A stretch of DNA of 39,300 nt from Escherichia phage vB_EcoP_FFK3. Positions 1 to 32,577 of this stretch are shown here, in pieces (within the stretch, counting starts at the first letter, position 1; every line of letters begins with the position of its first letter). Position numbers and translations under genes: made by a program. The notes below the pieces were generated by a model. That model had not been told where the DNA came from, searched no databases, and saw nothing but the letters and a program-made list of their open reading frames with translations. The stretch lies in sequence record ON548433.1; one strand, 5' to 3'.

Positions 1-581
1 ATAACGCCACGAAGAACAACCGAGCGATGGACGCTGCCCTGTCCACTGTGATCTCTATGGGTCTTGCTGGTATCTACTACATGGCTCAGGCTCATGTCAA
101 GGCTTACGCTATGCAGGATGGTCGAGACCGTGACTACCTCAAGCAAGCTCTAGACCCGACGATGATTGGATATGCAGCTCTATCACGTAGTTCACACCTT
201 GGTGGACCACTTGGGGTAGCTAACATTCTAGGTGGCATCGCTGGGTATGAGGACACTAAGATGCTCCGCTCGTCTATCCTACCTCGTTCGCCTACAGAGA
301 AGCCTGAACGTGCCATCACGTTTGGTGCAGCTACAAGTGACCCTGTGATGAATGTTGTTGGTAACTTCTTGGAGCAGGTTCCAGCTTTCGGATATGCTGC
401 TAACGTTGGCGTTTCTGCTTACAACTTGGCTGGCTACCTCAAGGCTGATACTCGTGTCAACGAGCGTGACTACATGACCGGGATGTATAATACGTTCCGT
501 GAACTGGTTCCGAACGACCCAATTACCCAGAAGCTGTTGCTTGGAACGTTTGAGGAGCAAGGTATCCACATCAAGGACTAA
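1..581 (+). CDS. gp16: Internal virion protein D (gp16), C-terminal fragment; 5-prime end lies outside the window
   Basis: Frame is open from nt 3 with no upstream stop; sits directly upstream of the tailspike gene as in T7 order 16-17; N-terminal part of gp16 runs off the window end at 39300. Confidence 0.6.
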   Translation, partial: NATKNNRAMDAALSTVISMGLAGIYYMAQAHVKAYAMQDGRDRDYLKQALDPTMIGYAALSRSSHLGGPLGVANILGGIAGYEDTKMLRSSILPRSPTEKPERAITFGAATSDPVMNVVGNFLEQVPAFGYAANVGVSAYNLAGYLKADTRVNERDYMTGMYNTFRELVPNDPITQKLLLGTFEEQGIHIKD

Positions 582-599
582 ACTATCACTATAGGAAAC
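577..599 (+). promoter_or_regulatory. Phage RNAP promoter (class II-like) upstream of tailspike gene
   Basis: ACTAAACTATCACTATAGGAAAC; shares core CTATCACTATAGG with 10 other sites; predicted +1 G at 594. Confidence 0.8.
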
Positions 600-645
600 G
601 GGAGGCGCTACCATAGGTCTCCGTTTAAATAACAAAGGAGGCATA

Positions 646-3600
646 ATGTCCACGATTACACAATTCCCCTCAGGAAACACTCAGTACAGGATTGAGTTCG
701 ACTACCTAGCCAGAACGTTTATTGTTGTTACGCTGGTGAATAGCTCTAACCCTACCCTGAACCGTGTACTGGAAGTTGGTCGGGATTACCGATTCCTTAA
801 TCCAACGATGATTGAGATGTTGGTTGACCAATCAGGTTTCGACATCGTTCGTATTCACCGTCAGACTGGAACTGACTTAGTGGTAGACTTCAGGAATGGC
901 TCAGTGTTGACAGCTAGTGACCTGACCAATTCAGAGCTTCAGGCTATCCATATTGCAGAAGAAGGTCGAGACCAAACGGTTGACTTAGCGAAGGAATATG
1001 CCGATGCTGCTGGTAGCTCTGCTGGCAACGCTAAGGATAGCGAGGACGAAGCACGACGAATCGCTGAGAGTATCAGGGAAGCTGGTCTAATTGGCTATAT
1101 TACCCGTCGCTCCTTCGAGAAAGGCTACAACGTTACAAAATGGAGCGAGGTCCTGCTATGGGAAGAGGATGGTGATTATTACCGCTGGGATGGTACGCTT
1201 CCAAAGAACGTTCCTGCTGGTTCAACTCCTGAAACTTCCGGTGGGATTGGATTAGGTGCGTGGGTTAGTGTTGGTGATGCGGCTTTAAGAAGTCAGATTT
1301 CAAATCCTGAAGGGGCAATACTCTACCCTGAATTACATAGAGCACGCTGGCTTGATGAAAAAGATGTTCGTGGTTGGGGGGCTAAAGGTGATGGTGTCAC
1401 TGATGATACAGCAGCGTTAACGAGCGCATTAAACGACATACCGGTTGGACAAAAGATTAATGGCAATGGGAAGACATATAAGGTCACATCCCTGCCTGAC
1501 ATTAGTCGCTTCATCAACACTCGTTTCGTTTATGAGCGCATTCCCGGACAACCTCTTTATTATGCCTCTGAGGAATTTGTTCAGGGTGAGTTGTTCAAAA
1601 TAACGGACACCCCTTATTACAATGCGTGGCCTCAGGATAAAGCGTTCGTATATGATAATGTGATATATGCACCTTACATGGGTAGCGATCGTCATGGTGT
1701 TAGTCGTCTGCATGTATCATGGGTTAAGTCTGGTGATGATGGTCAAACATGGTCTACTCCAGAGTGGTTAACTGATCTGCATCCAGATTACCCTACAGTG
1801 AACTATCACTGTATGAGTATGGGTGTATGTCGCAACCGTCTGTTTGCCATGATTGAAACACGTACTTTAGCCAAGAACGCATTAACCAATTGTGCATTGT
1901 GGGATCGCCCCATGTCTCGTAGCCTGCATCTTACTGGTGGTATCACTAAAGCTGCAAATCAGCGATATGCAACAATACATGTACCAGACCACGGACTATT
2001 CGTGGGTGATTTTGTTAACTTCTCTAATTCTGCGGTAACAGGTGTATCCGGTGATATGACTGTTGCAACCGTAATAGATAAGGACAACTTCACGGTTCTT
2101 ACACCCAACCAGCAGACTTCAGATTTGAATAACGCTGGAAATAATTGGCACATGGGTACTTCTTTCCATAAGTCTCCATGGCGTAAGACAGACCTTGGTC
2201 TAATCCCTCGTGTCACAGAGGTGCATAGCTTTGCTACTATTGATAACAATGGCTTTGTTATGGGCTATCATCAAGGCGATGTAGCTCCACGCGAAGTTGG
2301 GCTTTTCTATTTCCCTGATGCTTTCAATAGCCCATCTAGTTATGTTCGTCGTCAGATACCATCTGAGTATGAACCAGATGCGTCAGAGCCGTGCATCAAG
2401 TACTATGACGGTGTATTATACCTTATCACTCGTGGCACTCGTGGGGATAGACTAGGTAGCTCTTTGCATCGTAGTAGAGACATAGGTCAGACTTGGGAGT
2501 CACTGAGATTTCCACATAATGTTCATCATACTACATTACCTTTTGCTAAAGTAGGGGATGACCTTATTATGTTTGGTTCAGAACGTGCAGAAAATGAATG
2601 GGAAGCAGGTGCACCAGATGATCGTTACAAGGCATCTTATCCGCGCACCTTCTATGCACGCTTGAATGTAAACAATTGGAATGCAGATGATATTGAATGG
2701 GTTAACATCACTGACCAGATTTATCAGGGCGGAATAGTTAACTCAGGTGTAGGTGTTGGTTCGGTAGTTGTGAAGGATAATTACATCTACTACATGTTTG
2801 GTGGAGAGGACCATTTTAACCCATGGACATACGGAGATAACTCAGCGAAGGACCCATTCAAATCAGACGGTCATCCCTCAGATTTGTATTGCTACAAAAT
2901 GAAGATTGGCCCAAGCAATCATGTTTCCCGTGATTTCAGGTATGGCGCTGTACCTAACAGAGCTGTTCCCGTGTTTTTTGATACGAATGGGATTCGCACT
3001 GTTCCTGCGCCAATGGAATTTACAGGGGATTTGGGTTTAGGGCATGTGACCCTTAGAGCCAGCACCAGTAGTAACATTCGCTCTGAAGTTTTAATGGAAG
3101 GTGAATATGGGTTTATCGGGAAGTCTATACCGACTGATAACCCGGCAGGGCAGCGCACCATATTTTGCGGGGGTGAAGGAACCAGTTCAACGACTGGCGC
3201 ACAGATTACGCTTTATGGTGCAAATAACACCGACTCAAGGCGAATAGTTTACAATGGTGATGAGCATCTGTTCCAGACTGCTGACGTTAAGCCTTATCAC
3301 GATAACGTCATTGCGCTTGGTGGACCAAGTAACCGTTTCACAACTGCATATCTCGGAAGCAACCCTATTGTTACTTCTAATGGGGAGAAGAAAACAGAGC
3401 CGGTAGTTTTTGATGATGCTTTCCTAGATGCCTGGGGTGACGTTCACTACATCATGTATCAATGGTTAGATGCTGTTCAACTGAAAGGCAATGATGCTCG
3501 TATTCACTTCGGGGTTATTGCTCAGCAAATTCGTGATGTATTCATTGCACACGGTCTGATGGATGAAAACAGTACGAATTGTCGTTATGCTGTTCTGTGC

Positions 3601-3840
3601 TATGACAAGTATCCACGGATGACAGATACGGTATTTTCGCACAATGAAATCATTGAACACACTGACGAGGAGGGTAATGTCACTACTACGGAAGAGCCTG
3701 TATTCACTGAGGTGGTTATCCATGAAGAGGGTGAGGAGTGGGGTGTTCGGCCTGACGGAATTTTCTTTGCTGAAGCCGCTTATCAGAGAAGAAAACTGGA
3801 AAGAATCGAAGCCAGACTTTCTGCTCTTGAACAGAAGTAA
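646..3840 (+). CDS. gp17: Endosialidase (endo-N-acetylneuraminidase) tailspike with T7 gp17-like N-terminal adaptor and C-terminal intramolecular chaperone domain
   Basis: 1064 aa; N-terminus resembles T7 gp17 (FDYLARTFIVVTLVN); two Asp-box motifs (SGDDGQTW near nt 1716-1751, SRDIGQTW near nt 2473-2496); C-terminal chaperone-like segment (NDARIHFGVIAQQIRDV); RBS AAAGGAGG. Confidence 0.9.
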   Translation: MSTITQFPSGNTQYRIEFDYLARTFIVVTLVNSSNPTLNRVLEVGRDYRFLNPTMIEMLVDQSGFDIVRIHRQTGTDLVVDFRNGSVLTASDLTNSELQAIHIAEEGRDQTVDLAKEYADAAGSSAGNAKDSEDEARRIAESIREAGLIGYITRRSFEKGYNVTKWSEVLLWEEDGDYYRWDGTLPKNVPAGSTPETSGGIGLGAWVSVGDAALRSQISNPEGAILYPELHRARWLDEKDVRGWGAKGDGVTDDTAALTSALNDIPVGQKINGNGKTYKVTSLPDISRFINTRFVYERIPGQPLYYASEEFVQGELFKITDTPYYNAWPQDKAFVYDNVIYAPYMGSDRHGVSRLHVSWVKSGDDGQTWSTPEWLTDLHPDYPTVNYHCMSMGVCRNRLFAMIETRTLAKNALTNCALWDRPMSRSLHLTGGITKAANQRYATIHVPDHGLFVGDFVNFSNSAVTGVSGDMTVATVIDKDNFTVLTPNQQTSDLNNAGNNWHMGTSFHKSPWRKTDLGLIPRVTEVHSFATIDNNGFVMGYHQGDVAPREVGLFYFPDAFNSPSSYVRRQIPSEYEPDASEPCIKYYDGVLYLITRGTRGDRLGSSLHRSRDIGQTWESLRFPHNVHHTTLPFAKVGDDLIMFGSERAENEWEAGAPDDRYKASYPRTFYARLNVNNWNADDIEWVNITDQIYQGGIVNSGVGVGSVVVKDNYIYYMFGGEDHFNPWTYGDNSAKDPFKSDGHPSDLYCYKMKIGPSNHVSRDFRYGAVPNRAVPVFFDTNGIRTVPAPMEFTGDLGLGHVTLRASTSSNIRSEVLMEGEYGFIGKSIPTDNPAGQRTIFCGGEGTSSTTGAQITLYGANNTDSRRIVYNGDEHLFQTADVKPYHDNVIALGGPSNRFTTAYLGSNPIVTSNGEKKTEPVVFDDAFLDAWGDVHYIMYQWLDAVQLKGNDARIHFGVIAQQIRDVFIAHGLMDENSTNCRYAVLCYDKYPRMTDTVFSHNEIIEHTDEEGNVTTTEEPVFTEVVIHEEGEEWGVRPDGIFFAEAAYQRRKLERIEARLSALEQK

Positions 3841-3973
3841 TAAACAAAACCATTTTGCCATTAAGTTGGTGGGGTAGATGTTAGAAGGTTGTGGAGGTAG
3901 AGGCTAACTACACGCTAAACAACATAGGTAACAACTTTGGGTCACGGACGACCCGCTTTAAACTGGAGGTTTT

Positions 3974-4168
3974 ATGATTGAGTTAGACTTCAAGAATGAG
4001 GTCCTTAAAGCCTCTCCTATCGTCGGGACCGCTGCGGCTGATGGTGCCAGTCGGTTCTTCTTCGGACTTACACTGAACGAATGGTTCTACGTTGCAGCTA
4101 TCGCGTACACCGTTGTACAGATTGGTGTGCTAGTCTACAAAACGATTAAAGGAGGTGGTAAAACATGA
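3974..4168 (+). CDS. gp17.5: Class II holin (T7 gp17.5-like)
   Basis: 64 aa; strong similarity to recalled T7 gp17.5 (FFGLTLNEWFYVAAIAYTVVQIG); one TM segment; RBS GGAGG. Confidence 0.85.
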   Translation: MIELDFKNEVLKASPIVGTAAADGASRFFFGLTLNEWFYVAAIAYTVVQIGVLVYKTIKGGGKT

Positions 4169-4428
4169 CGCAGATGGACTTAGAGAAGTTCCTCTTGATG
4201 CTTGATACTGAGCGTGCTCGACTTATGCTGCAAGACTTGCGGGATGACACTAAGCGTTCACCTCAGCTCTACAACGCCATTGAGAAGCTGCTTGCTCGTC
4301 ACAACTTTGTGTTAAGCAAGGTGTCTGTTGACGAGAAGACGCTCGCTGATATGGAGGCCCTGAACGCAGAGTATGATAAGGTGCTTTCAGCGACTGAGGA
4401 TAATGACACCGGGTATGGTGTTCAATAA
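4165..4428 (+). CDS. gp18: Terminase small subunit (T7 gp18-like)
   Basis: 87 aa; similar to T7 gp18 (SPQLYNAIEKLLARH); start overlaps holin stop (ATGA). Confidence 0.8.
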   Translation: MTQMDLEKFLLMLDTERARLMLQDLRDDTKRSPQLYNAIEKLLARHNFVLSKVSVDEKTLADMEALNAEYDKVLSATEDNDTGYGVQ

Positions 4429-4430
4429 GC

Positions 4431-4478
4431 GTTAGACTCAAGGTCATTACTGTATGTAGTGGCCTTTATGGTTAACAC
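4431..4478 (+). other. Conserved stem-loop element, putative RNase III processing site (R18.5-like)
   Basis: GACTCAAGGTCAT..GTGGCCTTTATGGTTAAC; stem AAGGTCAT (4440-4447) pairs with GTGGCCTT (4459-4466) with two G-U wobbles; outer GTTA/TAAC pairing. Confidence 0.55.
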
Positions 4479-4529
4479 TAACTAGTGGAGGAGACTCTAC
4501 GTGCAATCTGATAAACCGGGAGGGCAACT

Positions 4530-4979
4530 ATGCTCGAATTTTTAAAGAGAGCGGCTCCGTGGTTACTTGCAGCAGTGATGTTTGCTGGTGGCTACCACAC
4601 CGCTAACAATAAGTGGGAGGCTAAGGTCAATGAAGAATACACCTCGAATCTTAAGGCATCGGAAGATACAAGGCTTGCTATCCAAGCTGAAGTCAACAAA
4701 GTGTCCAAACGGTTTCAGGACGAAATGTCCTCGTTGGAAGGCAGCACTGATAGGATTATTGCTGACCTTAAGTCTGACAATAAGCGGCTGCTCATCCGAG
4801 TCAAACCTACGAGTGGAACCACGCAAAGTGACGGTCGATGCTTCATTGATGGTTACGCCGAACTTGACGAACGAGATGCTAAACGTCTTATCGCCATCGG
4901 AGTGAAAGGAGACAAGTGGATTAAGGCCCTTCAAGACACTGTGAGAGCCTTACAGCAAGAGAAGGAGGTGACGCATTGA
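4530..4979 (+). CDS. gp18.5: Rz-like i-spanin (T7 gp18.5-like)
   Basis: 149 aa; N-terminal TM segment followed by a charged, coiled-coil-like periplasmic region; position after gp18; RBS GGGAGGG. Confidence 0.75.
4630..4905 (+). CDS. Rz1-like o-spanin lipoprotein embedded in the +1 frame of Rz; start codon uncertain
   Basis: +1 frame encodes [18 protein letters not shown] with lipobox Cys codon at 4789-4791 followed by a Pro-rich tail; only upstream ATG is at 4630, giving an implausibly long leader, so the true start is probably a non-ATG codon near 4747-4761. Confidence 0.4.
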   Translation: MKNTPRILRHRKIQGLLSKLKSTKCPNGFRTKCPRWKAALIGLLLTLSLTISGCSSESNLRVEPRKVTVDASLMVTPNLTNEMLNVLSPSE

Positions 4980-6739
4980 GTAAAGACTTAGTGGCGCGTC
5001 AGGCGCTAATGACTGCCCGTATGAAGGCAGACTTCGTGTTCTTCCTGTTCGTCCTGTGGAAAGCTCTGTCACTCCCGGTCCCGACTCGCTGTCAGATTGA
5101 CATGGCGAAGAAACTATCGGCTGGCGACAACAGGCGTTTCATCCTACAGGCGTTCCGTGGTATCGGGAAGTCCTTCATTACGTGTGCATTCGTGGTCTGG
5201 AAACTATGGAACAACCCAGACTTGAAGTTCATGATTGTGTCGGCCTCAAAGGAACGAGCCGATGCGAACTCCATCTTCATCAAGCGAATCATCGACCTCA
5301 TGCCTCAGCTTAAGGAACTCAAACCTAAGCAGGGACAGCGAGATGCGGTTATCAGCTTCGACGTTGGACCAGCCAAGCCGGACCACTCACCTTCGGTTAA
5401 GTCCGTTGGTATCACTGGTCAGTTGACTGGTAGTCGTGCTGACATCCTGATTGCCGATGACGTGGAGGTTCCGAACAACTCAGCGACTCAGGCTGCACGA
5501 GACCGTCTGTCAGAGCTTGTGAAAGAGTTCGATGCTATCCTGAAGCCCGGAGGCACAATCATCTATCTGGGTACTCCTCAGAACGAGATGACCCTGTATC
5601 GTGAGTTGGAAGGTCGTGGGTATACCACTACTATCTGGCCTGCTCGTTATCCACGCGACAGGAAGGACTGGCAGTCTTACGGCGACCGTCTGGCTCCTAT
5701 GCTTCAGGCAGAGCTTGAAGAGGACCCTGAGTCCTTCTACTGGCGTCCTACCGACGAGGTACGCTTCGATGATACGGACCTGAAGGAACGTGAGTTGTCA
5801 TATGGCAAGGCTGGCTTCGCTCTACAGTTCATGCTTAACCCTAACCTGAGTGATGCCGAGAAGTACCCTCTGAAGCTCCGTGACCTTATCGTAGCAGACT
5901 TGGACCCAGCGTCTAGCCCAATGGTCTACCAATGGCTTCCTAACCCTCAGAACAAGCGTGAGGACGTTCCTAACGTTGGACTCATAGGTGACTCATACCA
6001 CACGTATCAGACTGTAGGTTCTGCCTTCAGTTCGTACACCCAGAAGATTCTGGTCATTGACCCTAGTGGTCGTGGTAAGGATGAAACGGGTTATGCGGTA
6101 CTGTACCAGCTAAACGGCTACATCTTCGCTATGGAAGTTGGCGGTATGCGAGGTGGCTATGAAGACTCTACGCTGGAAGCCTTGGCTAAGATTGGTCGTA
6201 AGTGGAAGGTAAACGAATACGTCATTGAGGGTAACTTCGGTGATGGTATGTACCTTGAGCTATTCAAGCCTGTAGCTTCCCGTATTCATCCTGCTGCTGT
6301 AACTGAAGTGAAGAGTAAGGGTCAGAAGGAACTCCGCATCTGTGACGTTCTGGAGCCTATCATGGGGTCTCACCGACTTATCGTCAACGCTGCTGCTATC
6401 GTCCAAGATTACCAGTCTGCCTCTGATAAGGATGGTGTTCGTAACCCTATCTACTCTCTCTTCTATCAGATGACACGTATCTCTCGTGAACGTGGAGCAT
6501 TGGCACACGATGACCGACTTGATGCGCTGGCTATCGGTGTACAGTTCTTCGTTGAGTCTATGGCGAAGGATGCCAACAAAGGCGAACGTGAAGTCACTGA
6601 GGAGTGGCTGGAGGAACAGATGGAGAACCCACGGAAAGGCTTCGAGTCCATCCACACGGAGTTCTGGGACAATGGGGTCCGGGTAACTCACGATACGGAC
6701 GACGAGACGGGACTAGGGTCCTACGTTACGTTCCACTAG
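4976..6739 (+). CDS. gp19: Terminase large subunit (T7 gp19-like), probable TTG start
   Basis: 587 aa; similarity to T7 gp19 from the first residues ([30 protein letters not shown]); TTG at 4976 preceded by AGGAGG at 4960-4965; next in-frame ATG would remove conserved N-terminus. Confidence 0.9.
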
Positions 6740-7035: not shown

Positions 7036-7194
7036 ATGGCAAAGACCAAAGCTGTACTTAAAGCTCTGGCTACCAATCGAGCTACATACAGGTTTCTTGC
7101 TGCTGTTCTACTTGCTGCTGGCGTTACTGCTGGAAGTCAGTGGGTCGGGTGGGTCGAGACTCTCGTATGTTCTCTGGTGTCTCAGTGCAATTAA
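7036..7194 (+). CDS. gp19.5-like small protein
   Basis: 52-aa ORF with RBS GGAGG 8 nt upstream; downstream of phiOR-like promoter as T7 gene 19.5; hydrophobic core (FLAAVLLAAGV); absent from ORF track because under 60 aa. Confidence 0.45.
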   Translation: MAKTKAVLKALATNRATYRFLAAVLLAAGVTAGSQWVGWVETLVCSLVSQCN

Positions 7195-7444
7195 CGCAAT
7201 CATGGTAACGATTCATGAAAGGAGGTAGGTAGGTGTGAACGAAGATGACTACGTGTCGTTCTCAGAAGAGGACTACCAGACAGAGTGGGAATACGCACAT
7301 GGGAGGAAGAGCTAAGGTCAGTACGTGGATAAAGACTCACTCTACTGACCTTAGCTACTGTAGTCAAGGACTTTAGGTAACACCTTAATAGAAGCTCACT
7401 TAGTGTCATCCTACTTATTGGTCTATCCTAGTGTCGCCTGACCT

Positions 7445-7485
7445 ACGGTCCTTGACCTACAGTGGCTGTGGCCTACAGTAGTGAC
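7445..7485 (+). repeat. Short-repeat array (CCTAC(A/G)GT x3) on the right-end side of the terminal repeat
   Basis: GACCTACGGT, GACCTACAGT, GGCCTACAGT within 40 nt. Confidence 0.6.
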
Positions 7486-7517
7486 GATGAGTTTTGGACC
7501 AAAAGTTTGAGACCACA

Positions 7518-7705
7518 TCTCACAGTTCAAGAACCTCAAGTCTCCCCATAGGCCCTCTTTAAGTCCAGACCAAAGGCCCTACCCAGTCTATCATAAGGCT
7601 GGACCGATGGTCGACGATAGGTCTAGGCTATGGCTGGAGGTCAGGACGATAGGTAGGGACTATTGGTCTGTCTTTGAGTCTCTATCTGTATAGTGTTATA
7701 GTATA
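7518..7705 (+). repeat. Candidate terminal repeat (single copy as in a concatemer junction or circularised assembly); boundaries approximate
   Basis: Begins TCTCACAGT..CCCCATAGG, resembling the recalled first bases of the T7 genome; ends near ..GAGTCTCTATCTGTATAGTG, resembling the end of the T7 terminal repeat; flanked by short-repeat arrays. Confidence 0.45.
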
Positions 7706-7719
7706 ACATTACGTCCTAC

Positions 7720-7815
7720 ACCTACAGTCCTACACCTACAGTCCTACAACCTACAGTCCTACAACCTACAGTCTCAACCATAAGACACCAACACCTACAG
7801 TCAGAGACCTACAGT
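7720..7815 (+). repeat. Short-repeat array (about 6 copies of ACCTACAGT) on the left-end side of the terminal repeat
   Basis: CCTACACCTACAGT x2, CCTACAACCTACAGT x2, then two more CCTACAGT copies; analogous to T7 CCTAAAG repeats. Confidence 0.65.
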
Positions 7816-9818: not shown

Positions 9819-12500
9819 ATGAGCGTCATCTCTATTGATAAACACGACTTCTCTGATGTGTCGAACGCCATTGAGCCGTTTAACCTGCTGGCCGACCACT
9901 ACGGGCAAGATCTTGCAGTCAAACAGCTTCAGCTTGAGCATGAGGCATACACTGAAGGCGAGCGACGTTTCATCAAGAACCTTGAGCGACAGACTGAGCG
10001 CGGGGAACTGGCAGACAATCAGGTCGCCAAGCCTTTGATGCAGACTCTGGTCCCTAAGATTGCGCAAGCCGTCAAGGAGTGGCACGAAGGTCCAGACGGG
10101 AAGCTGTCAACCTCTCGTCCTAGCGTAGCGTTCACCATGTTGAGCACTGAAGAGAAGGCCGTCAAGGACCGCTCACTGCGTATCTCTTGCGAGTCTGCTG
10201 CGGTCATCATACTGAAGGTCATACTCTCCAAGCTGGTCAAGCCTGAGGGGATACCAATTACACCGATGGCTTCCGCGATAGGTCGCACACTTGAGGATGA
10301 AATCCGCTTCGGTCGCATCCGTGACAAGGAGAAGGAGCACTTCAAGAAGGCGATAGCTGATAACCTGAATAAGCGGGCCGGGGCGTCCTACAAGAAAGCC
10401 TACATGCAAGCGGTCGAGGCATCCATGCTGGAGCAAGGACAACTTGAAGATGCGTGGGGAACTTGGAGTCCTACAGAGGCTGTCCACGTTGGCATCAAGA
10501 TGCTTGAGATTGTCATCCAGTCAACACAACTGGTAGAGCTTAAGCGGTACGGTGCTGGCAATGCAGCGGCTGACGTAGAGATGGTCCACCTGTCAGACTT
10601 CTGGGTCAAGAAGATGGCACAACGAGGATTCAGCCTTGCGGGTATCGCTCCAGTCTACCAGCCTTGCGTCGTTCCACCTAAGCCGTGGACTGGTGTCGTA
10701 GGTGGTGGGTACTGGGCCAAAGGTCGCAGACCGTTACCATTGATTCGCTTAGGGTCTAAGTCTGCGGTGGCACGTTATGAAGACGTGTACATGCCTGAAG
10801 TCTATGACGCTGTGAATATCATCCAGAATACACCTTGGAAAGTGAACAAGAAGGTATTAGACGTGGTGAACATGGTCGAGAAGCTGAACAACACGCCTAT
10901 TGATGACATCCCTCAGATGGAACCGCTGAAGCCTGAAGACTATGCGGGTGAGACTGAGGAGGAACTCAAGGCATGGAAGAAGGCTGCTGCTGGTATCTAT
11001 CGCCGCGAGAAGGCCAGACAGTCACGCAGATTATCACTGAGCTTTATCGTTAACCAAGCGAACAAGTTCTCTCAGTTCAAGGCCATCTGGTTCCCGTACA
11101 ACATGGACTGGCGAGGTCGTGTCTACGCTGTGCCGATGTTCAACCCTCAGGGTAACGACATGCAGAAGGGTCTCCTGACTCTGGCAGTCGGTAAGCCTAT
11201 TGGTGCTGATGGTTTCAAATGGCTGAAGGTCCACGGTGCAAACTGTGCTGGTGTCGATAAAGTCACCTTCGAGGAGCGTATCAAGTGGGTGGAAGACAAC
11301 CACGAAAACATCATGGCTGCTGCTAAGGCACCGATGGATAGTATTGAGTGGTGGGGCAAGTTAGACTCTCCGTTCTGTTTCCTCGCGTTCTGCTTCGAGT
11401 ATGCTGGCGTAATGCACCACGGCCTGTCTTACTCCTGCTCGCTGCCGATAGCGTTCGATGGGTCCTGCTCTGGTATTCAGCACTTCAGTGCGATGCTTCG
11501 TGACCACATCGGTGGACATGCAGTAAACCTGACGCCATCCGGTAAGGTACAAGACATCTACCGCATTGTGTCTGACCGCATTGAGGAGGAGCTTAAAGTC
11601 CTGCTGATTAACGGTACTGACAACGAGATGGTCACTCACGAGGATAAGAAAACTGGTGAGATTACCGAACGTATCAAGCTGGGGACACGAGAGCTGGCCC
11701 GGCAGTGGCTGACTTACGGCATGTCACGCAAGGTCACTAAGCGTTCAGTAATGACTCTGGCCTATGGGTCGAAAGAGTACGGCTTCGCAGACCAAGTTTA
11801 TGAGGACATCGTGATGCCAGCGATTGACTCAGGGTCTGGCGCTATGTTCACCGAACCAAGCCAAGCGTCCCGCTTCATGGCTAAGATGATTTGGGAAGCT
11901 GTGAGCGTGACCGTAGTTGCTGCGGTTGACGCGATGAAGTGGCTTCAGGGTGCTGCCAAGCTGCTGGCTGCTGAAGTGAAGGACAAGAAGACTGGAGAAA
12001 TCCTGAAGCCTTGCCTTCCGGTACACTGGGTAACACCTGATGGTTTCCCGGTCTGGCAGGAATACCGCAAGAAGGATACCACTCGTCTGAATCTGATGTT
12101 CTTAGGGTCATTCAACCTTCAACCTACGGTCAACAAAGGCACGAAGAAAGAGCTTGACAAGCACAAGCAGGAGTCAGGCATTAGCCCGAACTTCGTCCAC
12201 TCACAAGATGGTAGCCACCTCCGCAAGACTGTAGTCCACACGCATCGCAAGTATGGCGTGATGTCATTCGCAGTGATTCATGATAGCTTCGGGACCATCC
12301 CGGCTGACGCTGAACATCTGTTCCGTGGTGTCCGTGAGACGATGGTCGAGACCTACCGCGACAACGATGTGCTGCTTGACTTCTACGAGCAGTTTGAATA
12401 CCAGCTTCATGAGAGCCAGCGCGACAAGTTGCCTGAGCTTCCGAAGAAAGGTAAACTGAATATCGAAGACATCTTGTCTTCAGACTTTGCATTCGCTTAA
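9819..12500 (+). CDS. gp1: Single-subunit DNA-directed RNA polymerase (T7 gp1 homolog)
   Basis: 893 aa; conserved T7 RNAP blocks incl. catalytic DGSCSGIQH and C-terminal FAFA; RBS AAGGA. Confidence 0.95.
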   Translation: MSVISIDKHDFSDVSNAIEPFNLLADHYGQDLAVKQLQLEHEAYTEGERRFIKNLERQTERGELADNQVAKPLMQTLVPKIAQAVKEWHEGPDGKLSTSRPSVAFTMLSTEEKAVKDRSLRISCESAAVIILKVILSKLVKPEGIPITPMASAIGRTLEDEIRFGRIRDKEKEHFKKAIADNLNKRAGASYKKAYMQAVEASMLEQGQLEDAWGTWSPTEAVHVGIKMLEIVIQSTQLVELKRYGAGNAAADVEMVHLSDFWVKKMAQRGFSLAGIAPVYQPCVVPPKPWTGVVGGGYWAKGRRPLPLIRLGSKSAVARYEDVYMPEVYDAVNIIQNTPWKVNKKVLDVVNMVEKLNNTPIDDIPQMEPLKPEDYAGETEEELKAWKKAAAGIYRREKARQSRRLSLSFIVNQANKFSQFKAIWFPYNMDWRGRVYAVPMFNPQGNDMQKGLLTLAVGKPIGADGFKWLKVHGANCAGVDKVTFEERIKWVEDNHENIMAAAKAPMDSIEWWGKLDSPFCFLAFCFEYAGVMHHGLSYSCSLPIAFDGSCSGIQHFSAMLRDHIGGHAVNLTPSGKVQDIYRIVSDRIEEELKVLLINGTDNEMVTHEDKKTGEITERIKLGTRELARQWLTYGMSRKVTKRSVMTLAYGSKEYGFADQVYEDIVMPAIDSGSGAMFTEPSQASRFMAKMIWEAVSVTVVAAVDAMKWLQGAAKLLAAEVKDKKTGEILKPCLPVHWVTPDGFPVWQEYRKKDTTRLNLMFLGSFNLQPTVNKGTKKELDKHKQESGISPNFVHSQDGSHLRKTVVHTHRKYGVMSFAVIHDSFGTIPADAEHLFRGVRETMVETYRDNDVLLDFYEQFEYQLHESQRDKLPELPKKGKLNIEDILSSDFAFA

Positions 12501-12719: not shown

Positions 12720-12793
12720 CAGACCTACAGTTACTGGCCTTGTGGCTGGGAGTACTAGCAGTATTCACTTTAATCCAACTCAGAAGAGGTTAA

Positions 12794-12816
12794 CCTAAAC
12801 TATCACTATAGGATTA
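12794..12816 (+). promoter_or_regulatory. Phage RNAP promoter (phi1.1A-like)
   Basis: CCTAAACTATCACTATAGGATTA; +1 G at 12811. Confidence 0.8.
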
Positions 12817-12857
12817 GACTCAAGGTCATGACTCAAAGTCGTGGCCTTCATGATTAA
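12814..12857 (+). other. Conserved stem-loop element, putative RNase III site (R1.1-like)
   Basis: TTAGACTCAAGGTCATG..GTGGCCTTCATGATTAA; stem AAGGTCAT (12822-12829) with GTGGCCTT (12841-12848). Confidence 0.55.
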
Positions 12858-12888
12858 CCCTATAACCTAAACAACTGGAGCTACAACA

Positions 12889-19517: not shown

Positions 19518-19550
19518 TTACGAGAAGTATAAATGGAGGGTTCCATTCTA

Positions 19551-19856
19551 ATGTTACGAAAACTTAAAGCTCGCTACCATCGGTTCATGTACAAATGGTG
19601 GAGTGACGAAGCAACCTGCCTGTCCAACATTCTGGGAGACCAAAGGTTCGAAGGCGTGGGGAGGGTAAAGCTCGATACCATCGGTTCATGTACAAATGGT
19701 GGAGCGACGAAGCAACCTGCCTGTCGAACATTCTGGGAGACCAAAGGTTCGACTCTGAGGCGTGGAAGAGAGCTAACAGGAAGTTTATGTATCACTTCTT
19801 GCGTACAGACTTCTAGGTCTAGACTCAAGGTCATTCATAGCGAGTGGCCTTTATGA
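19551..19856 (+). CDS. Hypothetical small protein, reading frame altered by an internal tandem duplication
   Basis: ATG 19551 with SD GGAGGG; frame runs through duplication copy 1 and then through the downstream stem-loop to 19856; a reconstructed single-copy gene would be 54 aa and stop at 19816. Confidence 0.4.
   Translation: MLRKLKARYHRFMYKWWSDEATCLSNILGDQRFEGVGRVKLDTIGSCTNGGATKQPACRTFWETKGSTLRRGRELTGSLCITSCVQTSRSRLKVIHSEWPL
19565..19765 (+). repeat. Tandem direct duplication (copies 19565-19659 and 19666-19765, offset 101 bp)
   Basis: Copies differ by 3 substitutions plus a 5-bp indel (CTCTG); offset not a multiple of 3. Confidence 0.85.
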
Positions 19857-19860
19857 TTAG
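19819..19860 (+). other. Conserved stem-loop element, putative RNase III site (R4.7-like)
   Basis: CTAGACTCAAGGTCATTC..GTGGCCTTTATGATTAG; stem AAGGTCAT (19827-19834) with GTGGCCTT (19844-19851). Confidence 0.55.
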
Positions 19861-25394: not shown

Positions 25395-26963
25395 ATGGCT
25401 GAACGTGAAGGGTTCGCTGCTGAAGGAGCCAAAGCGGTCTATGACCGACTGAAGAACGGTAGACAGCCATATGAGACACGCGCTCAGAACTGTGCTGCTG
25501 TCACTATCCCGTCACTGTTTCCTAAGGAGTCCGACAACTCGTCTACTGAGTACACAACTCCGTGGCAAGCTGTAGGTGCTCGCTGTTTGAACAACTTGGC
25601 TGCAAAGCTGATGCTGGCATTATTCCCTCAGTCACCGTGGATGCGACTTACAGTCTCCGAATATGAGGCCAAGACCTTGAGTCAGGACTCAGAGGCTGCT
25701 GCTCGTGTTGACGAAGGGCTTGCTATGGTCGAGCGTGTGTTGATGGCCTACATGGAGACTAACAGTTTCCGTGTGCCATTGTTCGAAGCTCTGAAGCAGC
25801 TTATCGTCTCCGGTAACTGTCTGCTTTACATTCCAGAGCCTGAACAGGGTACTTACAGTCCTATGCGAATGTACCGCTTAGTGTCCTACGTTGTTCAACG
25901 TGATGCTTTCGGTAATATCTTGCAGATTGTGACTCTCGACAAGGTAGCGTTTAGTGCTCTACCGGAAGACGTTAAGTCACAACTCAACGCAGACGACTAT
26001 GAGCCTGACACAGAGCTGGAAGTATATACGCACATCTACCGTCAAGACGACGAGTATCTACGTTATGAGGAAGTGGAAGGCATTGAGGTGGCAGGGACCG
26101 AGGGTTCCTACCCACTGACTGCATGTCCATACATCCCGGTACGAATGGTTCGACTGGATGGTGAAGACTATGGTCGTTCTTACTGCGAGGAGTATCTGGG
26201 AGACCTGAACTCGCTGGAGACGATTACAGAAGCTATCACCAAAATGGCTAAGGTAGCCTCCAAGGTGGTGGGCCTCGTTAACCCGAACGGTATCACGCAA
26301 CCTCGTCGTCTGAACAAGGCGGCTACAGGTGAGTTCGTTGCCGGTCGCGTTGAGGACATCAACTTCCTGCAACTGACTAAGGGTCAGGACTTTACGATTG
26401 CCAAGTCGGTGGCTGATGCTATCGAGCAACGTTTAGGCTGGGCCTTCCTTCTTAATAGTGCTGTTCAGCGTAATGCCGAGCGAGTCACTGCTGAAGAGAT
26501 TCGTTATGTTGCTGGCGAACTGGAGGCGACCTTAGGTGGCGTGTACTCAGTACAATCCCAAGAGCTTCAGTTACCTATCGTCCGTGTGCTGATGAACCAA
26601 CTTCAGTCTGCTGGCATGATTCCTGACCTTCCGAAAGAAGCGGTAGAGCCTACTGTCTCCACTGGTCTGGAAGCGTTAGGTCGTGGTCAGGACTTGGAGA
26701 AGCTAACTCAGGCGGTTAACATGATGACTGGTCTTCAGCCGCTATCTCAGGACCCGGACATCAACTTGCCGACCCTTAAGCTACGACTCCTGAACGCTCT
26801 GGGCATCGACACCGCTGGCCTACTCCTGACGCAAGACGAGAAGATTCAGCGCATGGCTGAGCAGTCGTCTCAACAGGCAGTTGTCCAAGGTGCTAGTGCT
26901 GCTGGTGCTAACATGGGTGCTGCTGTAGGTCAGGGAGCTGGTGAGGACATGGCTCAAGCCTAA
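25395..26963 (+). CDS. gp8: Portal (head-tail connector) protein (T7 gp8 homolog)
   Basis: 522 aa; position between 7.3 and scaffold; RBS AAGGAGG. Confidence 0.9.
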   Translation: MAEREGFAAEGAKAVYDRLKNGRQPYETRAQNCAAVTIPSLFPKESDNSSTEYTTPWQAVGARCLNNLAAKLMLALFPQSPWMRLTVSEYEAKTLSQDSEAAARVDEGLAMVERVLMAYMETNSFRVPLFEALKQLIVSGNCLLYIPEPEQGTYSPMRMYRLVSYVVQRDAFGNILQIVTLDKVAFSALPEDVKSQLNADDYEPDTELEVYTHIYRQDDEYLRYEEVEGIEVAGTEGSYPLTACPYIPVRMVRLDGEDYGRSYCEEYLGDLNSLETITEAITKMAKVASKVVGLVNPNGITQPRRLNKAATGEFVAGRVEDINFLQLTKGQDFTIAKSVADAIEQRLGWAFLLNSAVQRNAERVTAEEIRYVAGELEATLGGVYSVQSQELQLPIVRVLMNQLQSAGMIPDLPKEAVEPTVSTGLEALGRGQDLEKLTQAVNMMTGLQPLSQDPDINLPTLKLRLLNALGIDTAGLLLTQDEKIQRMAEQSSQQAVVQGASAAGANMGAAVGQGAGEDMAQA

Positions 26964-29416: not shown

Positions 29417-29983
29417 ATGGCTCAATACATTCCACTGAATGCTAACGATGACTTAGACGCTATCAACGATATGTTAGCTGCTATCGGTGAACCAGCAGTC
29501 CTACAGCTTGACGAGGGGAACGCTGACGTCTCGAACGCCCAACGTATCCTGCATCGTGTCAATCGTCAGGTCCAAGCTAAAGGCTGGAACTTTAACATCA
29601 ATGAAGCTGCTGTCCTGACACCTGATGTCCAAGACAATAGGATTCGATTCTTGCCGTCATACCTTCGTGTAATGACCGCTGGGGCCACCAGCTACTACAG
29701 CAACATGGGTGGATACCTGTACGACCTGTCCACTCAGTCGACCACTTTCACCGACCCTATCACGGTAGAGCTTGTGGAGATGAAGCCATTCTCAGAGATG
29801 CCTGTGGTCTTCAGGGACTACATCGTCACTAAAGCTAGCCGTGAGTTCAACGCTAAGTTCTTCGGTAGCCCAGAGTCTGAACTGTACCTTCGTGAGCAGG
29901 AAGCAGAACTCTATCAGCAGGTCATGGAATACGAGATGGATACTGGTCGCTACAACATGATGTCCGACATTGGGAGAGACTAA
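29417..29983 (+). CDS. gp11: Tail tubular protein A (T7 gp11 homolog)
   Basis: Start at ATG 29417 (RBS GGAGGGAG); blocks GEPAVLQLDEGNADVSNAQRILHRVNRQVQAKGWNFNI and YIVTKASREFNAKFFG match T7 gp11. Confidence 0.85.
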   Translation: MAQYIPLNANDDLDAINDMLAAIGEPAVLQLDEGNADVSNAQRILHRVNRQVQAKGWNFNINEAAVLTPDVQDNRIRFLPSYLRVMTAGATSYYSNMGGYLYDLSTQSTTFTDPITVELVEMKPFSEMPVVFRDYIVTKASREFNAKFFGSPESELYLREQEAELYQQVMEYEMDTGRYNMMSDIGRD

Positions 29984-30219: not shown

Positions 30220-32577
30220 ATGCCACTAATTACTCAATCAATCAAGAACCTTAAAGGTGGCATTAGCCAACAGCCTGATATACTGAGGTTCTCAGACCAA
30301 GGCGAGGCACAGGTTAACTGCTGGTCATCCGAGAGTGATGGCCTCCAGAAGCGTCCACCTACAGTCTTCAAGCGACGTCTTAACATCGACGTTGGGAGCA
30401 ACCCTAAGTTCCACCTGATTAACCGTGATGAGCATGAGCAGTATTACATCGTGTTCAATGGGTCCAACATTCAGGTAGTTGACTTGAGTGGTAATCAATA
30501 CTCAGTGTCAGGTGCGGTAGATTACGTTAAGTCCTCCAACCCACGAGATGACATCCGTGTCGTTACCGTGGCAGACTATACGTTCGTCGTTAACCGTAAG
30601 GTTGTCGTCAAAGGTGGAAGCGAGAAGTCACACTCTGGTTATAACCGCAAAGCACGAGCTTTAATTAACCTGCGTGGTGGACAGTATGGTCGAACCCTTA
30701 AGGTGGGAATCAACGGTGGCGTTAAGGTCTCGCATAAGCTACCAGCAGGTAATGATGCCGAGAATGACCCGCCTAAGGTGGACGCTCAAGCCATTGGTGC
30801 AGCTCTGAGAGACCTTCTTGTTACTGCCTACCCTACCTTCACGTTTGACCTTGGGTCTGGATTCCTGCTAATCACAGCTCCTTCAGGGACCGATATTAAC
30901 TCAGTGGAGACGGAGGATGGCTACGCTAACCAGCTAATAAGCCCAGTCCTAGACACTGTGCAGACAATCTCTAAACTACCTCTTGCCGCTCCTAATGGGT
31001 ATATCATTAAGATTCAAGGTGAGACAAACAGTAGCGCCGATGAATACTACGTGATGTATGACTCCAACACTAAGACGTGGAAGGAGACAGTGGAGCCGGG
31101 AGTTGTCACTGGGTTCGATGACACCACAATGCCACATGCTCTGGTAAGACAGTCTGACGGCTCCTTTGAGTTCAAGACTCTGGATTGGTCCAAGCGTGGT
31201 TCTGGTAACGATGACACAAACCCTATGCCTAGCTTCGTGGATGCTGCGATTAATGATGTGTTCTTCTACAGGAACAGACTTGGGTTCTTGTCGGGTGAGA
31301 ACGTAATCATGAGCCGTTCAGCCAGCTACTTTTCGTTCTTCCCTAAGAGTGTGGCGACACTGAGTGATGATGACCCTATTGATGTAGCTGTAAGTCACCC
31401 TCGAATCTCAATCCTTAAGTATGCCGTTCCGTTTAGCGAGCAGCTACTACTTTGGTCGGATGAGGTTCAGTTCGTGATGACAAGCTCTGGGGTCCTTACC
31501 TCGAAGTCTATCCAGCTTGATGTAGGCTCAGAGTTTGCCTTAGGCGACAATGCCAGACCGTTCGCTGTAGGACGCTCAGTCTTCTTCTCAGCTCCTCGTG
31601 GGTCATTCACCAGCATTAAGCGATACTTCGCTGTAGCTGATGTGTCTGATGTGAAGGATGCTGATGATACAACCGGTCACGTATTGTCCTACATCCCTAA
31701 CGGGGTGTTTGATATTCAAGGTACAGGGACTGAGAACTACATCTGCGTCAACTCTACAGGTGCATACAACCGTATCTACATCTACAAGTTCTTGTTTAAG
31801 GACGGCGTACAGCTTCAAGCCTCTTGGTCACACTGGGAGTTCCCTAAAGATGATAAGATTCTGGCGTCTGCTTCTATTGGCTCTACCATGTTCATCGTTC
31901 GTCAGCATCAAGGAGGGGTAGACATTGAGCACCTTAAGTTCATCAAGGAGGCAACTGACTTCCCGTCAGAGCCATATAGACTACACATTGACTCCAAGGT
32001 GTCTATGGTAATTCCAATTGGCTCATATAATGCTGACACCTATAAGACTACGGTTGACATTGGTGCTGCTTATGGTGGCAACGCTCCGTCTCCCGGTCGG
32101 TACTATCTGATTGACAGTCAGGGTGCTTATGTGGACCTTGGGGACTTGACCAGTATCTCTACTGTGATTACCCTCAACGGCGATTGGTCAGGACGTACAG
32201 TGTTCATCGGACGGCCCTATCTGATGTCCTACAAGTTCTCACGGTTCCTGATTAAGATTGAAGATGATAGGGGCACTCAGTCTGAAGACACTGGTCGTCT
32301 ACAGCTTCGTCGGGCCTGGGTCAACTACAAGGACACTGGCGCTCTGAGACTCATTGTCAGAAACGGTGAGCGAGAGTTCGTTAACACCTTTAATGGGTAC
32401 ACCCTTGGTCAGCAAACCATAGGGACTACTAACATTGGTGACGGGCAGTATCGCTTCGCTATGAATGGTAACGCATTAACCACGAGTCTAACCTTAGAGT
32501 CCGACTATCCTACCCCAGTGTCCATCGTTGGGTGTGGCTGGGAGGCATCATACGCTAAGAAAGCTCGTTCAATCTAA
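30220..32577 (+). CDS. gp12: Tail tubular protein B (T7 gp12 homolog)
   Basis: 785 aa; N-terminus ITQSIKNLKGGISQQPDILRF matches T7 gp12; RBS AAGGAGGG. Confidence 0.9.
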   Translation: MPLITQSIKNLKGGISQQPDILRFSDQGEAQVNCWSSESDGLQKRPPTVFKRRLNIDVGSNPKFHLINRDEHEQYYIVFNGSNIQVVDLSGNQYSVSGAVDYVKSSNPRDDIRVVTVADYTFVVNRKVVVKGGSEKSHSGYNRKARALINLRGGQYGRTLKVGINGGVKVSHKLPAGNDAENDPPKVDAQAIGAALRDLLVTAYPTFTFDLGSGFLLITAPSGTDINSVETEDGYANQLISPVLDTVQTISKLPLAAPNGYIIKIQGETNSSADEYYVMYDSNTKTWKETVEPGVVTGFDDTTMPHALVRQSDGSFEFKTLDWSKRGSGNDDTNPMPSFVDAAINDVFFYRNRLGFLSGENVIMSRSASYFSFFPKSVATLSDDDPIDVAVSHPRISILKYAVPFSEQLLLWSDEVQFVMTSSGVLTSKSIQLDVGSEFALGDNARPFAVGRSVFFSAPRGSFTSIKRYFAVADVSDVKDADDTTGHVLSYIPNGVFDIQGTGTENYICVNSTGAYNRIYIYKFLFKDGVQLQASWSHWEFPKDDKILASASIGSTMFIVRQHQGGVDIEHLKFIKEATDFPSEPYRLHIDSKVSMVIPIGSYNADTYKTTVDIGAAYGGNAPSPGRYYLIDSQGAYVDLGDLTSISTVITLNGDWSGRTVFIGRPYLMSYKFSRFLIKIEDDRGTQSEDTGRLQLRRAWVNYKDTGALRLIVRNGEREFVNTFNGYTLGQQTIGTTNIGDGQYRFAMNGNALTTSLTLESDYPTPVSIVGCGWEASYAKKARSI

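Follow-up and report, generated by a model that had tools for sequence, protein, structure and literature searches.

Gene 17 of a K1F-like Kayfunavirus: a probable endoNF-type endosialidase tailspike on an exchangeable cassette

Introduction

Tailspikes of T7-like phages combine a conserved attachment part with a receptor-binding part, and the long open reading frame near the start of the Escherichia phage vB_EcoP_FFK3 sequence (ON548433.1; the whole stretch analyzed, 39,300 nt, is called the window below) raises the question of which tailspike it encodes and where its parts were joined. The original prediction had described a modular protein with a T7-type adaptor, a sialidase-like center and a C-terminal chaperone, acquired horizontally. 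We conclude that this gene is almost certainly gene 17 of a K1F-like Kayfunavirus (a T7 relative) encoding the endosialidase tailspike endoNF (CAZy GH58), and no evidence contradicting this reading was found. The system is already known and a textbook one. What had been observed in the sequence was confirmed, and its interpretation was supported.

Identity and Extent of Gene 17

646..3840, + strand: gene 17, endosialidase tailspike precursor (open reading frame of 1064 amino acids plus stop)

The reading frame begins with ATG, has no internal stop codon and occupies exactly the coordinates originally predicted. Its product is 97.7% identical to K1F gp17 (endoNF) in amino acid sequence, with 24 of 1064 positions different, and 99.2% and 98.0% identical to the tailspikes of vB_EcoP_PR_Kaz2018 and vB_EcoP_F, respectively; none of these alignments contains an indel. 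At the DNA level, the full-length gene is 95.5–99% identical to 24 phage records, mostly Kayfunaviruses. The endoNF crystal chains 1v0e, 3gvj, 3gvk, and 3gvl align end to end over aa 245–910. None of the 24 differences from K1F falls on a catalytic, sialic-acid-binding or cleavage residue. Of 20 key residues checked, all match K1F, and 16 do not vary among endosialidases from six phage lineages. The 97.7% identity to the characterized K1F enzyme, together with the fact that the nearest record comes from a K1 host, argues that the protein is probably an active enzyme specific for K1.

Tail Anchor and Connector

646..1065, + strand: tail adaptor (anchor) module, aa 1–140 (Pfam Phage_T7_tail, PF03906, at aa 10–115, E=1.4e-15)
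1111..1278, + strand: Tail_spike_N domain, aa 156–211, connector between anchor and enzyme (PF18668, E=3.4e-19)

An adaptor of about 140 residues resembling the T7 tail fiber had been proposed. Its T7-type character was borne out by Pfam and by the T7 gp17 N-terminal chains solved in the tail (7boz, 8dsp, and 8e4g), which match aa 6–116 with E values of about 1e-15 to 1e-17. The direct match to T7 is shorter than proposed, covering about 115 residues: the PF03906 match spans profile positions 16–115 of 157, leaving the last ~40 unmatched, and T7 gene 17 aligns to aa 6–113 with 39% identity (tblastn). Against Klebsiella-phage anchors the similarity extends to about 130 residues, and an anchor of ~140 residues is also quoted in the literature (PMC6872550).

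The Tail_spike_N domain matches the CBA120 TSP and G7C-type chains 4oj5, 5w6f, 5w6h, 6nw9, and 4qnl. This domain, the endosialidase N-terminal extension, the beta-barrel, and the beta-helix stalk are modules that the original prediction did not contain. Tail_spike_N domains are found in podo-, sipho-, and myovirus tailspikes.

Enzyme Domains

1381..1581, + strand: endosialidase N-terminal extension, aa 246–312 (PF12218, E=2.7e-37)
1582..2907, + strand: six-bladed catalytic beta-propeller, aa 313–754 (PF12217, E=5e-222)
1729..1752, + strand: Asp-box 1, SGDDGQTW, aa 362–369 (regular expression with shuffle control)
1915..2163, + strand: polysialic-acid-binding, lectin-like beta-barrel inserted in the propeller, aa 424–506 (PF12195, E=2.9e-47)
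2473..2496, + strand: Asp-box 2, SRDIGQTW, aa 610–617 (regular expression with shuffle control)
2914..3375, + strand: triple-beta-helix stalk, aa 757–910 (PF12219, E=4e-78)

All four dedicated Pfam endosialidase families match the central region (E from 5e-222 to 3e-37), and the propeller match covers profile positions 1–366 of 367. The profile search and the alignment to endoNF chains over aa 245–910 thus agree with the predicted endosialidase domain; crystal constructs begin at aa 245/246. The two sialidase-type Asp-boxes reported earlier were recovered. The strict motif S-x-D-x-G-x-T-W occurs exactly twice in the protein, while only 14 of 20,000 protein shuffles contained at least one. Asp-box 1 is conserved in every aligned endosialidase, and Asp-box 2 is also conserved, in relaxed form in CUS-3 and K1H. 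Two Asp-boxes have likewise been published for the propeller of K1F, in blades 1 and 4 (PMC2716378). The exosialidase FRIP motif was searched for, and just RIP turned up, at aa 298, which is not part of the propeller.

The residues H350, R549, E581, R596, and R647 are identical to those of K1F and invariant in seven endosialidases of six phage lineages; Q330, K585, and N699 are also present and invariant in the seven aligned sequences (residue roles in catalysis and substrate contact from PMC13564897). In the stalk, the residues of the third sialic-acid binding site (R812, Y821, R837, S848, and Q853) are conserved. The GH58 mechanism is of the inverting type (PMC6811678).

Could the gene nevertheless encode a catalytically dead, binding-only tailspike, or be decaying? 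We regard this as extremely improbable. The only reason to consider it is that endoNF point mutants lacking activity retain their binding of polysialic acid; the chains 3gvj, 3gvk, and 3gvl, whose sequences depart slightly from that of 1v0e, are probably such mutants. Nothing was found in this gene that supports inactivity or decay. The 1064-codon frame is intact and all eight propeller residues named above are present. Moreover, the differences from relatives are mostly synonymous, with 83 nucleotide changes for 24 amino acid changes relative to K1F; across the whole genome, codon position 3 accounts for 209 of the 262 differences in coding sequence.

C-Terminal Chaperone

3376..3837, + strand: intramolecular chaperone/Peptidase S74 domain, aa 911–1064 (PF13884 at 914–971, E=5e-9)

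A self-cleaving chaperone had been expected at the C-terminus, and the profile and structure matches agree. The Peptidase_S74 match scores 36.7 bits, where the cut-off is 22, and the domain directly follows the triple-beta-helix. The endoNF chaperone construct 3gw6 aligns over aa 790–1064 (E=1e-182), and the phi29 gp12 chaperone 3gud over aa 915–1014 (E=9e-13). The cleavage-site sequence reads NPIVT|SNGEKKTEPV, and S911, N912, K916, G956, and D994 are all present, with S911, K916, and G956 invariant across seven homologues. Ser911 and Lys916, five residues apart, are described as the autocleavage dyad, and Asn912 and Gly956 are reported to be essential (PMC3742443). The annotation of AM084414 ends the mature gp17* at codon 910 and starts gp17-CTD at codon 911. 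From the near-identical K1F protein, autocleavage between Thr910 and Ser911 is predicted, which would release the chaperone.

Exchange of the Endosialidase Cassette

1282..3883, + strand: exchangeable cassette relative to the sister Kayfunaviruses LS3 and ST3, aa 213 to the gene end plus 43 nt downstream (blastn)

The DNA comparisons locate where the parts of the gene were joined. By blastn, the window matches LS3 and ST3 at 1–1281/1278 (94–96% identity) and again at 3884–5000 (97%), with nothing between. Conversely, IME207 (Shuimuvirus) aligns solely to 1169–3851 (94%), and YX22 (Ackermannviridae) solely to 1210–3851 (81%). The segment from nt ~1170/1282 to ~3851/3883 behaves as a cassette that can be swapped while the Kayfunavirus backbone around it is conserved. 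Its GC content is 44.3%, compared with 50.3% in the rest of the window, and the endosialidase module is present in at least seven unrelated phage lineages. These breakpoints, the GC deficit of 6 points, and the lineage distribution support the proposed horizontal acquisition.

The 5' breakpoints at nt 1169, 1210, 1278, and 1281 correspond to aa 175, 188, and 212; with some partners the break comes at aa 214–263. All four lie inside the DNA coding for Tail_spike_N (nt 1111–1278) or at most 3 nt from its end. The junction is therefore not near aa 140; it is within or just after the Tail_spike_N domain. The acquisition, whatever its direction, is part of the shared history of the K1F clade and not peculiar to this genome. 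Reviews use T7 and K1F as the type example of such module swapping between tailspikes (PMC6872550).

Vertical descent with uneven divergence, the enzyme part evolving faster than the anchor and no horizontal exchange taking place, would account for the general observation that anchors are more conserved than receptor-binding parts, and the K1F clade does inherit the gene whole (95–99% over the full length in 24 records). But the similarity to sister Kayfunaviruses stops abruptly at nt 1278/1281 and returns to 97% at nt 3884, and unrelated domains stand in between, such as the SASA esterase of the S. Typhi phage ST3. The enzyme DNA is, moreover, 94% identical to that of a Shuimuvirus with an unrelated backbone and 81% identical to that of an Ackermannviridae phage, and the cassette lies 6 GC points below the backbone. 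On this evidence descent without exchange has a negligible chance of being correct, and exchange of a cassette is preferred.

Taking cassette exchange further, we tentatively suggest, giving the idea somewhat less than an even chance, that the Tail_spike_N connector DNA is a recurrent cross-family recombination junction, a universal "plug" for the cassette, and that variation in the stalk fine-tunes processivity. If so, endosialidase and chaperone could travel together as one cassette from one tail type to another, unrelated one through this plug, with processivity tuned among K1 strains.

Variation in the Stalk

The differences from K1F are unevenly spread: 8 of the 24 lie in the 156-residue stalk and 4 in the connector region at aa 141–245. 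Amino acid divergence is 5.1% in the stalk, whereas the anchor, propeller, and barrel modules show 0.9–2.1%. Whichever two K1F-type alleles are compared, the stalk varies most (1.1–6.0% at the nucleotide level), and one of its substitutions here, I838T, adjoins the stalk-site residue R837.

This pattern raises the possibility that the protein keeps the endoNF fold while its substrate preference or processivity is shifted from that of K1F through substitutions at the stalk site, so that, for example, O-acetylated K1 or alternating alpha-2,8/2,9 (K92) polysialic acid would be handled better or worse. The concentration of changes in the stalk, I838T among them, and the variability of this part in all allele pairs are in favor, as is a deep mutational scan in which the stalk is termed a "tuning knob" of processivity and of host discrimination among K1 strains. 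However, the named binding residues (R812 to Q853) are unchanged, and the single mutations of the scan left the capsule type unreprogrammed. Synonymous divergence is raised in the stalk as well, with 28 nucleotide changes for 8 amino acid changes relative to K1F, a pattern equally compatible with selection and with a patch that has recombined or is under less constraint. The host of the nearest record is, in addition, an ordinary O18:K1 strain. We thus consider a shifted preference unlikely and keep to the K1F-like specificity of endoNF.

Genomic Context and Expression Signals

577..595, + strand: putative promoter of gene 17 for the T7-type single-subunit RNA polymerase, ACTAAACTATCACTATAGG (consensus copy)
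634..640, + strand: Shine-Dalgarno sequence AAGGAGG, 5 nt upstream of the ATG (read from the sequence)
25395–26963: portal (Head-tail_con, E=1e-97)
29417–29983: tail tube (PF17212, E=4e-46)
30220–32577: Phage_nozzle (PF25675, E=0)

The gene order is of the T7 type (gp16, 17, holin 17.5, 18, Rz 18.5, and 19). The putative promoter is one of 11 copies of a 19–25 nt consensus along the + strand of the window; it overlaps the stop codon of gene 16 and lies 50 nt upstream of the gene 17 ATG. In the old K1F record M63657 a promoter is annotated at the equivalent place (record positions 43–69, window 579–605), as is a ribosome-binding site equivalent to 634..640. A matching phage RNA polymerase is encoded at 9819–12500 of the window. 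Sigma-70 promoters gave no signal (6 found versus 6.8 expected), and the whole window yielded no Rfam match at gathering thresholds.

Neither a consensus scan of 3840–3974 nor the fold of 3838–3975 (z = -1.2) revealed an intrinsic terminator after gene 17; the transcript presumably runs on into the lysis and packaging genes. The "terminator" annotated in M63657 was rejected because it sits within the chaperone coding sequence, where it is a relic of an early reading of the gene as truncated. An attempt to restore gene 16 by joining the ends of the window was also rejected: the join is one base short and the frames mismatch.

Proposed Mechanism

In the mechanism that we propose, the phage RNA polymerase would transcribe gene 17 from its own promoter at 577–595. 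Three precursor chains would trimerize, nucleated by the C-terminal chaperone domain (aa 911–1064). After folding of the triple-beta-helix stalk, cleavage of Thr910|Ser911 by the Ser911/Lys916 dyad would free the chaperone. By analogy with the near-identical K1F protein, the T7 gp17-type anchor (aa 1 to ~140), with Tail_spike_N (156–211) behind it, would then attach six mature trimers (aa 2–910) to the tail. The beta-barrel and stalk sites would hold alpha-2,8-polysialic acid, and the propeller site (H350, R549, E581, R596, and R647) would cleave it internally with inversion of configuration. Such cleavage would let the virion tunnel through the K1 capsule and reach the E. coli cell.

Significance

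The discovery value of this gene is small, as K1F gp17 is among the best characterized phage depolymerases, with crystal structures with and without substrate, a study of the chaperone mechanism, and a complete deep mutational scan. Endosialidases are in use as polysialic-acid reagents and anti-K1 therapeutics. The present allele supplies 24 naturally tolerated substitutions that can be compared with the mutational scan, and the nucleotide-level breakpoints provide tailspike-swap junctions for Kayfunavirus chassis, 5' at ~aa 175–212 and 3' just past the stop codon.

Comparison with Known Systems

The closest characterized system is K1F endoNF (PDB 1v0e, 1v0f, 3gvj-l, and 3ju4; chaperone 3gw6). 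The two proteins share their length of 1064 residues, domain order, Asp-boxes, catalytic and binding residues, and cleavage site, and the genes share the phage promoter ahead of them and a location flanked by genes 16 and 17.5. They differ by the 24 conservative-to-moderate substitutions that are enriched in the stalk and connector region.

The closest record is vB_EcoP_F (KY295894), a Smith-Huggins K1 therapy phage. The window is collinear with it over all 39,300 nt at 98.8% identity, with no indels and the gene at the same coordinates. Its tailspike is already annotated as an endosialidase. The isolation host of this phage was E. coli O18ac:K1:H7, and an endosialidase gene is present in each of the nine phages in its collection. 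At the gene level the best match is vB_EcoP_PR_Kaz2018 (MN510331), with 99.0% nucleotide identity and 8 amino acid differences. Gene 17 differs from it at 32 nucleotides and from vB_EcoP_F at 68, whereas the backbone is nearest to vB_EcoP_F, which suggests shuffling of alleles inside the clade. Mt1B1_P3 is another K1F-like Kayfunavirus with a related tailspike.

Outside the genus, the enzyme, stalk, and chaperone are common to gp47 of K1E/K1-5 (Vectrevirus), SiaK1 of CUS-3 (P22-like), and K1G/K1H (Kagunavirus), and the same modules occur in phi92/phAPEC8-type myoviruses (PDB 4hiz), YX22 (Ackermannviridae), and IME207 (Shuimuvirus). From ~aa 85–234 onward, identity is 92% with IME207, 80% with YX22, 71% with K1E, 62% with CUS-3, and 48% with K1H, and H350, R549, E581, R596, R647, S911, and K916 are invariant in these endosialidases. 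Their N-terminal attachment modules differ, and none has the T7 gp17 anchor. In CUS-3, 113 unrelated residues precede the shared part, which we take to form a P22-type head-binding domain. In K1E just ~21 residues do, and that phage attaches through a separate adapter protein (PMC6872550).

The reverse combination is seen in tailspikes that share the N-terminal anchor, namely T7 gp17, LS3, ST3, PDB 9vvr and 9lna, and the Klebsiella KP32-type 7xy1 and 8x8m. LS3 and ST3 are 89–90% identical to the present protein over aa 1–211/220, and 9vvr_A (one of 18 chains in PDB 9vvr) is near-identical until ~aa 230 and similar until aa 263. Endosialidase similarity was found neither in the distal part of LS3 (Pfam scan) nor in that of 9vvr (sequence match). 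Past the anchor and connector all of these proteins differ, from the LPS-binding fiber of T7 to the SASA-type esterase of ST3.

Gene 17 Locus and Expression Signals

Gene 17, which encodes the endosialidase tailspike precursor, is one unbroken open reading frame of 1064 codons starting with ATG. The order of genes around it is that of T7 (16, 17, 17.5, 18, 18.5, 19). The features of the locus and its expression signals are as follows.

Features of the gene 17 locus and the matching RNA polymerase (window positions)
Upstream of gene 17: 3' end of gene 16 (internal virion protein)
577-595: promoter-like 19-nt sequence, ACTAAACTATCACTATAGG, overlapping the gene 16 stop codon, 50 nt 5' of the ATG
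634-640: Shine-Dalgarno sequence AAGGAGG, upstream of the gene 17 ATG
646-3840, + strand: gene 17
3974-4168: holin, downstream of gene 17
4165-4428: small terminase (gp18), downstream of gene 17
4530-4979: Rz-like spanin, downstream of gene 17
4976-6739: large terminase, downstream of gene 17
9819-12500: matching single-subunit RNA polymerase, encoded in the window

The putative promoter belongs to a set of 11 consensus copies scattered over the + strand of the window, which is how T7-type phage promoters are distributed. A promoter was annotated at the equivalent position in M63657, a K1F record of the 1990s. No terminator was found 3' of gene 17 by a terminator scan and folding of the downstream stretch. 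In M63657 the CDS is also shorter (110..2872), and the "terminator" annotated at 2970-3070 (about window 3506-3606) lies, according to later records, inside the chaperone-domain coding sequence; this is an old error of sequencing or annotation that persists in the database.

Modular Architecture of the Tailspike

Profile searches divided the protein into the following modules.

Modules and motifs of the tailspike (residues)
10-115: T7-type anchor (Pfam Phage_T7_tail, E = 1.4e-15)
156-211: connector (Tail_spike_N, PF18668, E = 3e-19)
246-312: endosialidase N-terminal extension (Pfam)
313-754: endosialidase beta-propeller (Pfam)
362-369: Asp-box 1, SGDDGQTW
424-506: beta-barrel, inserted in the propeller region (Pfam)
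610-617: Asp-box 2, SRDIGQTW
757-910: stalk (Pfam)
914-971: chaperone (Pfam Peptidase_S74)

In T7, the gp17 anchor docks where the tube (gp11) and the nozzle (gp12) join; the window itself carries genes for a tail tube, a nozzle, and a portal protein. The original prediction of a T7-type anchor was borne out, except in its length: measurable similarity to T7 spans about 115 residues, not 140. Besides the Pfam match, the N-terminal chains of T7 gp17 solved in the tail (7boz, 8dsp, 8e4g) matched residues 6-116, and identity to T7 gene 17 was 39% over residues 6-113 (tblastn). Reviews give about 140 residues for anchors of this type (PMC6872550).

The endosialidase itself was recognized by four dedicated Pfam families (E = 5e-222 to 3e-37). 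As had been predicted, the strict Asp-box S-x-D-x-G-x-T-W occurs exactly twice, and two is also the number published for the K1F propeller (PMC2716378); at least one strict Asp-box appeared in just 14 of 20,000 shuffled versions of the protein. The expected C-terminal chaperone was likewise found, with 3gw6, the solved chaperone construct of endoNF (gp17 of phage K1F), matching residues 790-1064 (E = 1e-182). The Tail_spike_N module between the anchor and the enzyme had not been mentioned in the prediction; other tailspikes that have it include those of CBA120, G7C-type phages, and many Ackermannviridae and Salmonella phages. Counting this extra module, the protein is built of an anchor, a connector, an endosialidase with four sub-domains, and a chaperone, in that order.

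Horizontal Exchange of the Enzyme Cassette

The horizontal acquisition proposed for this gene holds at the DNA level, as seen in abrupt breakpoints, cross-lineage matches, and a contrast in GC content. The E. coli phage LS3 and the S. Typhi phage ST3, both sister Kayfunaviruses, carry other tailspikes, that of ST3 having a SASA esterase domain. They were 94-96% identical to the window up to nt 1281 and 1278, respectively (residue 212), after which all similarity was lost; it returned at 97% from nt 3884, 43 nt beyond the gene 17 stop. Conversely, matches to the Shuimuvirus IME207 and the Ackermannviridae phage YX22 were confined to nt 1169-3851 (94%) and 1210-3851 (81%). Vertical descent with uneven rates is ruled out by such abrupt breakpoints together with 94% DNA identity across families.

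At the protein level, the shared part began at window residue 234 in K1E gp47, 214 in CUS-3, 141 in IME207, 116 in YX22, and 85 in K1H, while the solved spike 9vvr_A has its N-terminus in common up to about residues 230-263. The junctions are thus placed within the connector domain or shortly behind it (residues 175-263), not at residue 140. The GC content of the cassette exchanged relative to LS3 and ST3 (1282-3883) was 44.3%, versus 50.3% in the rest of the window; the former is close to the 45% of the K1E-like phages (Vectreviruses), which is no more than a hint as to the donor lineage. By tblastn, 138 phage records contained the enzyme module; almost all of these came from E. coli, with K1 hosts where a serotype was given. 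The anchor region matched 2,417 records spanning many different hosts. The exchange belongs to the history of the clade.

Other Features of the Window

The sequence was opened within gene 16 (window 1-581 and 35995-39300). The frame at 27..581, labeled "hypothetical protein gp16" in KY295894 (phage vB_EcoP_F), is just the C-terminal end of an internal virion protein of about 1295 residues, the remainder of which is encoded from 35995 onward, past the end of the window. When the ends are joined, one base (T) is missing relative to K1F gene 16, so that the two parts are out of frame; an artefact of assembly or permutation is the probable cause.

An element of about 49 nt occurs in three copies, each with a strong hairpin fold, for which Rfam gave no match.

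Copies of the 49-nt hairpin element
4432-4480: between genes 18 and 18.5 (hairpin z = -2.4)
12814-12862: directly 3' of a promoter copy (12788-12812), after RNA polymerase gene 1 (z = -5.8)
19814-19859: directly before the DNA polymerase gene (z = -2.4)

T7 has its RNase III processing sites R18.5, R1.1, and R4.7 at these places. Between the primase-helicase and DNA polymerase genes, an unannotated gap contains an 87-nt tandem repeat (19565-19752) whose copies start 101 nt apart and are 97% identical; a 107-codon frame (19533-19856) spans it. A cluster of 14-nt direct repeats resembling CCTACACCTACAGT (7436-7815) lies in the noncoding stretch that separates the first early genes from the gene at 7036-7194, itself downstream of terminase gene 19. 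This region presumably contains the ends of the genome and its terminal repeat; terminal repeats of 165 bp were reported for vB_EcoP_F.

Comparison with endoNF and Related Phages

By sequence, the gene 17 product is an allele of endoNF, with 24 of 1064 residues substituted and no indels; among the substitutions are K499N, D757S, R759H, I838T, N885H, and T889I. The endoNF crystal structure could be aligned, with chains 1v0e and 3gvj-l covering residues 245-910. All 20 catalytic, substrate-binding, and maturation residues checked from the literature were identical to K1F (Q330, H350, K410, R549, E581, K585, R596, R647, N699, R812, Y821, R837, S848, Q853, R866, S911, N912, K916, G956, and D994). 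For their roles we relied on a deep mutational scan of K1F gp17 (PMC13564897) and on a study of the MYRF/ICA domain, which described a Ser-Lys dyad and found N912 and G956 essential (PMC3742443). In an alignment of seven endosialidases from six phage lineages, H350, R549, E581, R596, R647, S911, K916, and G956 were invariant. In AM084414, the genome record of K1F, mature protein and chaperone are divided between codons 910 and 911, where the window protein reads the same (NPIVT|SNGEKK). Given 98% identity to K1F gp17, the product would be expected to act on polysialic acid and to cleave itself. A dead or decaying gene is ruled out by the intact frame, the conserved active site, and mainly synonymous divergence.

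It is unlikely, though conceivable, that this tailspike differs subtly from that of K1F in processivity or in how it discriminates among K1 host strains. The stalk, termed a "tuning knob" in the K1F scan (PMC13564897), holds 8 of the 24 differences from K1F and varied more than any other module in five of six pairwise allele comparisons; however, its named binding residues are the same as in K1F, and synonymous divergence is elevated there too. Among the four K1F-type alleles (window, K1F, vB_EcoP_F, and Kaz2018; six pairs), nucleotide differences cluster in the stalk (up to 6.0%), are above average in the chaperone domain in some pairs, and amount to 0.4-2.0% in the beta-barrel; stalk and chaperone together correspond to window 2908-3837 (residues 755-1064).

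Returning to the window as a whole, it is collinear with the Kayfunavirus vB_EcoP_F, a Smith and Huggins K1 therapy phage isolated on E. coli O18ac:K1:H7, with equal length and the same gene coordinates (486 substitutions, no indels, 98.8% identity). Across the 17 larger genes examined, 209 of 262 differences fell at codon position 3, and 22-28 kb was nearly free of differences. In gene 17, the window is nearer to Kaz2018 (8 amino acid differences) than to vB_EcoP_F (21), which gives it the look of a naturally mosaic relative, one absent from the phage collection searched. The tailspike itself is no new find: an endosialidase is what the nearest GenBank record lists here, and for the closely related K1F gp17 both a solved structure and a mutational scan are available.
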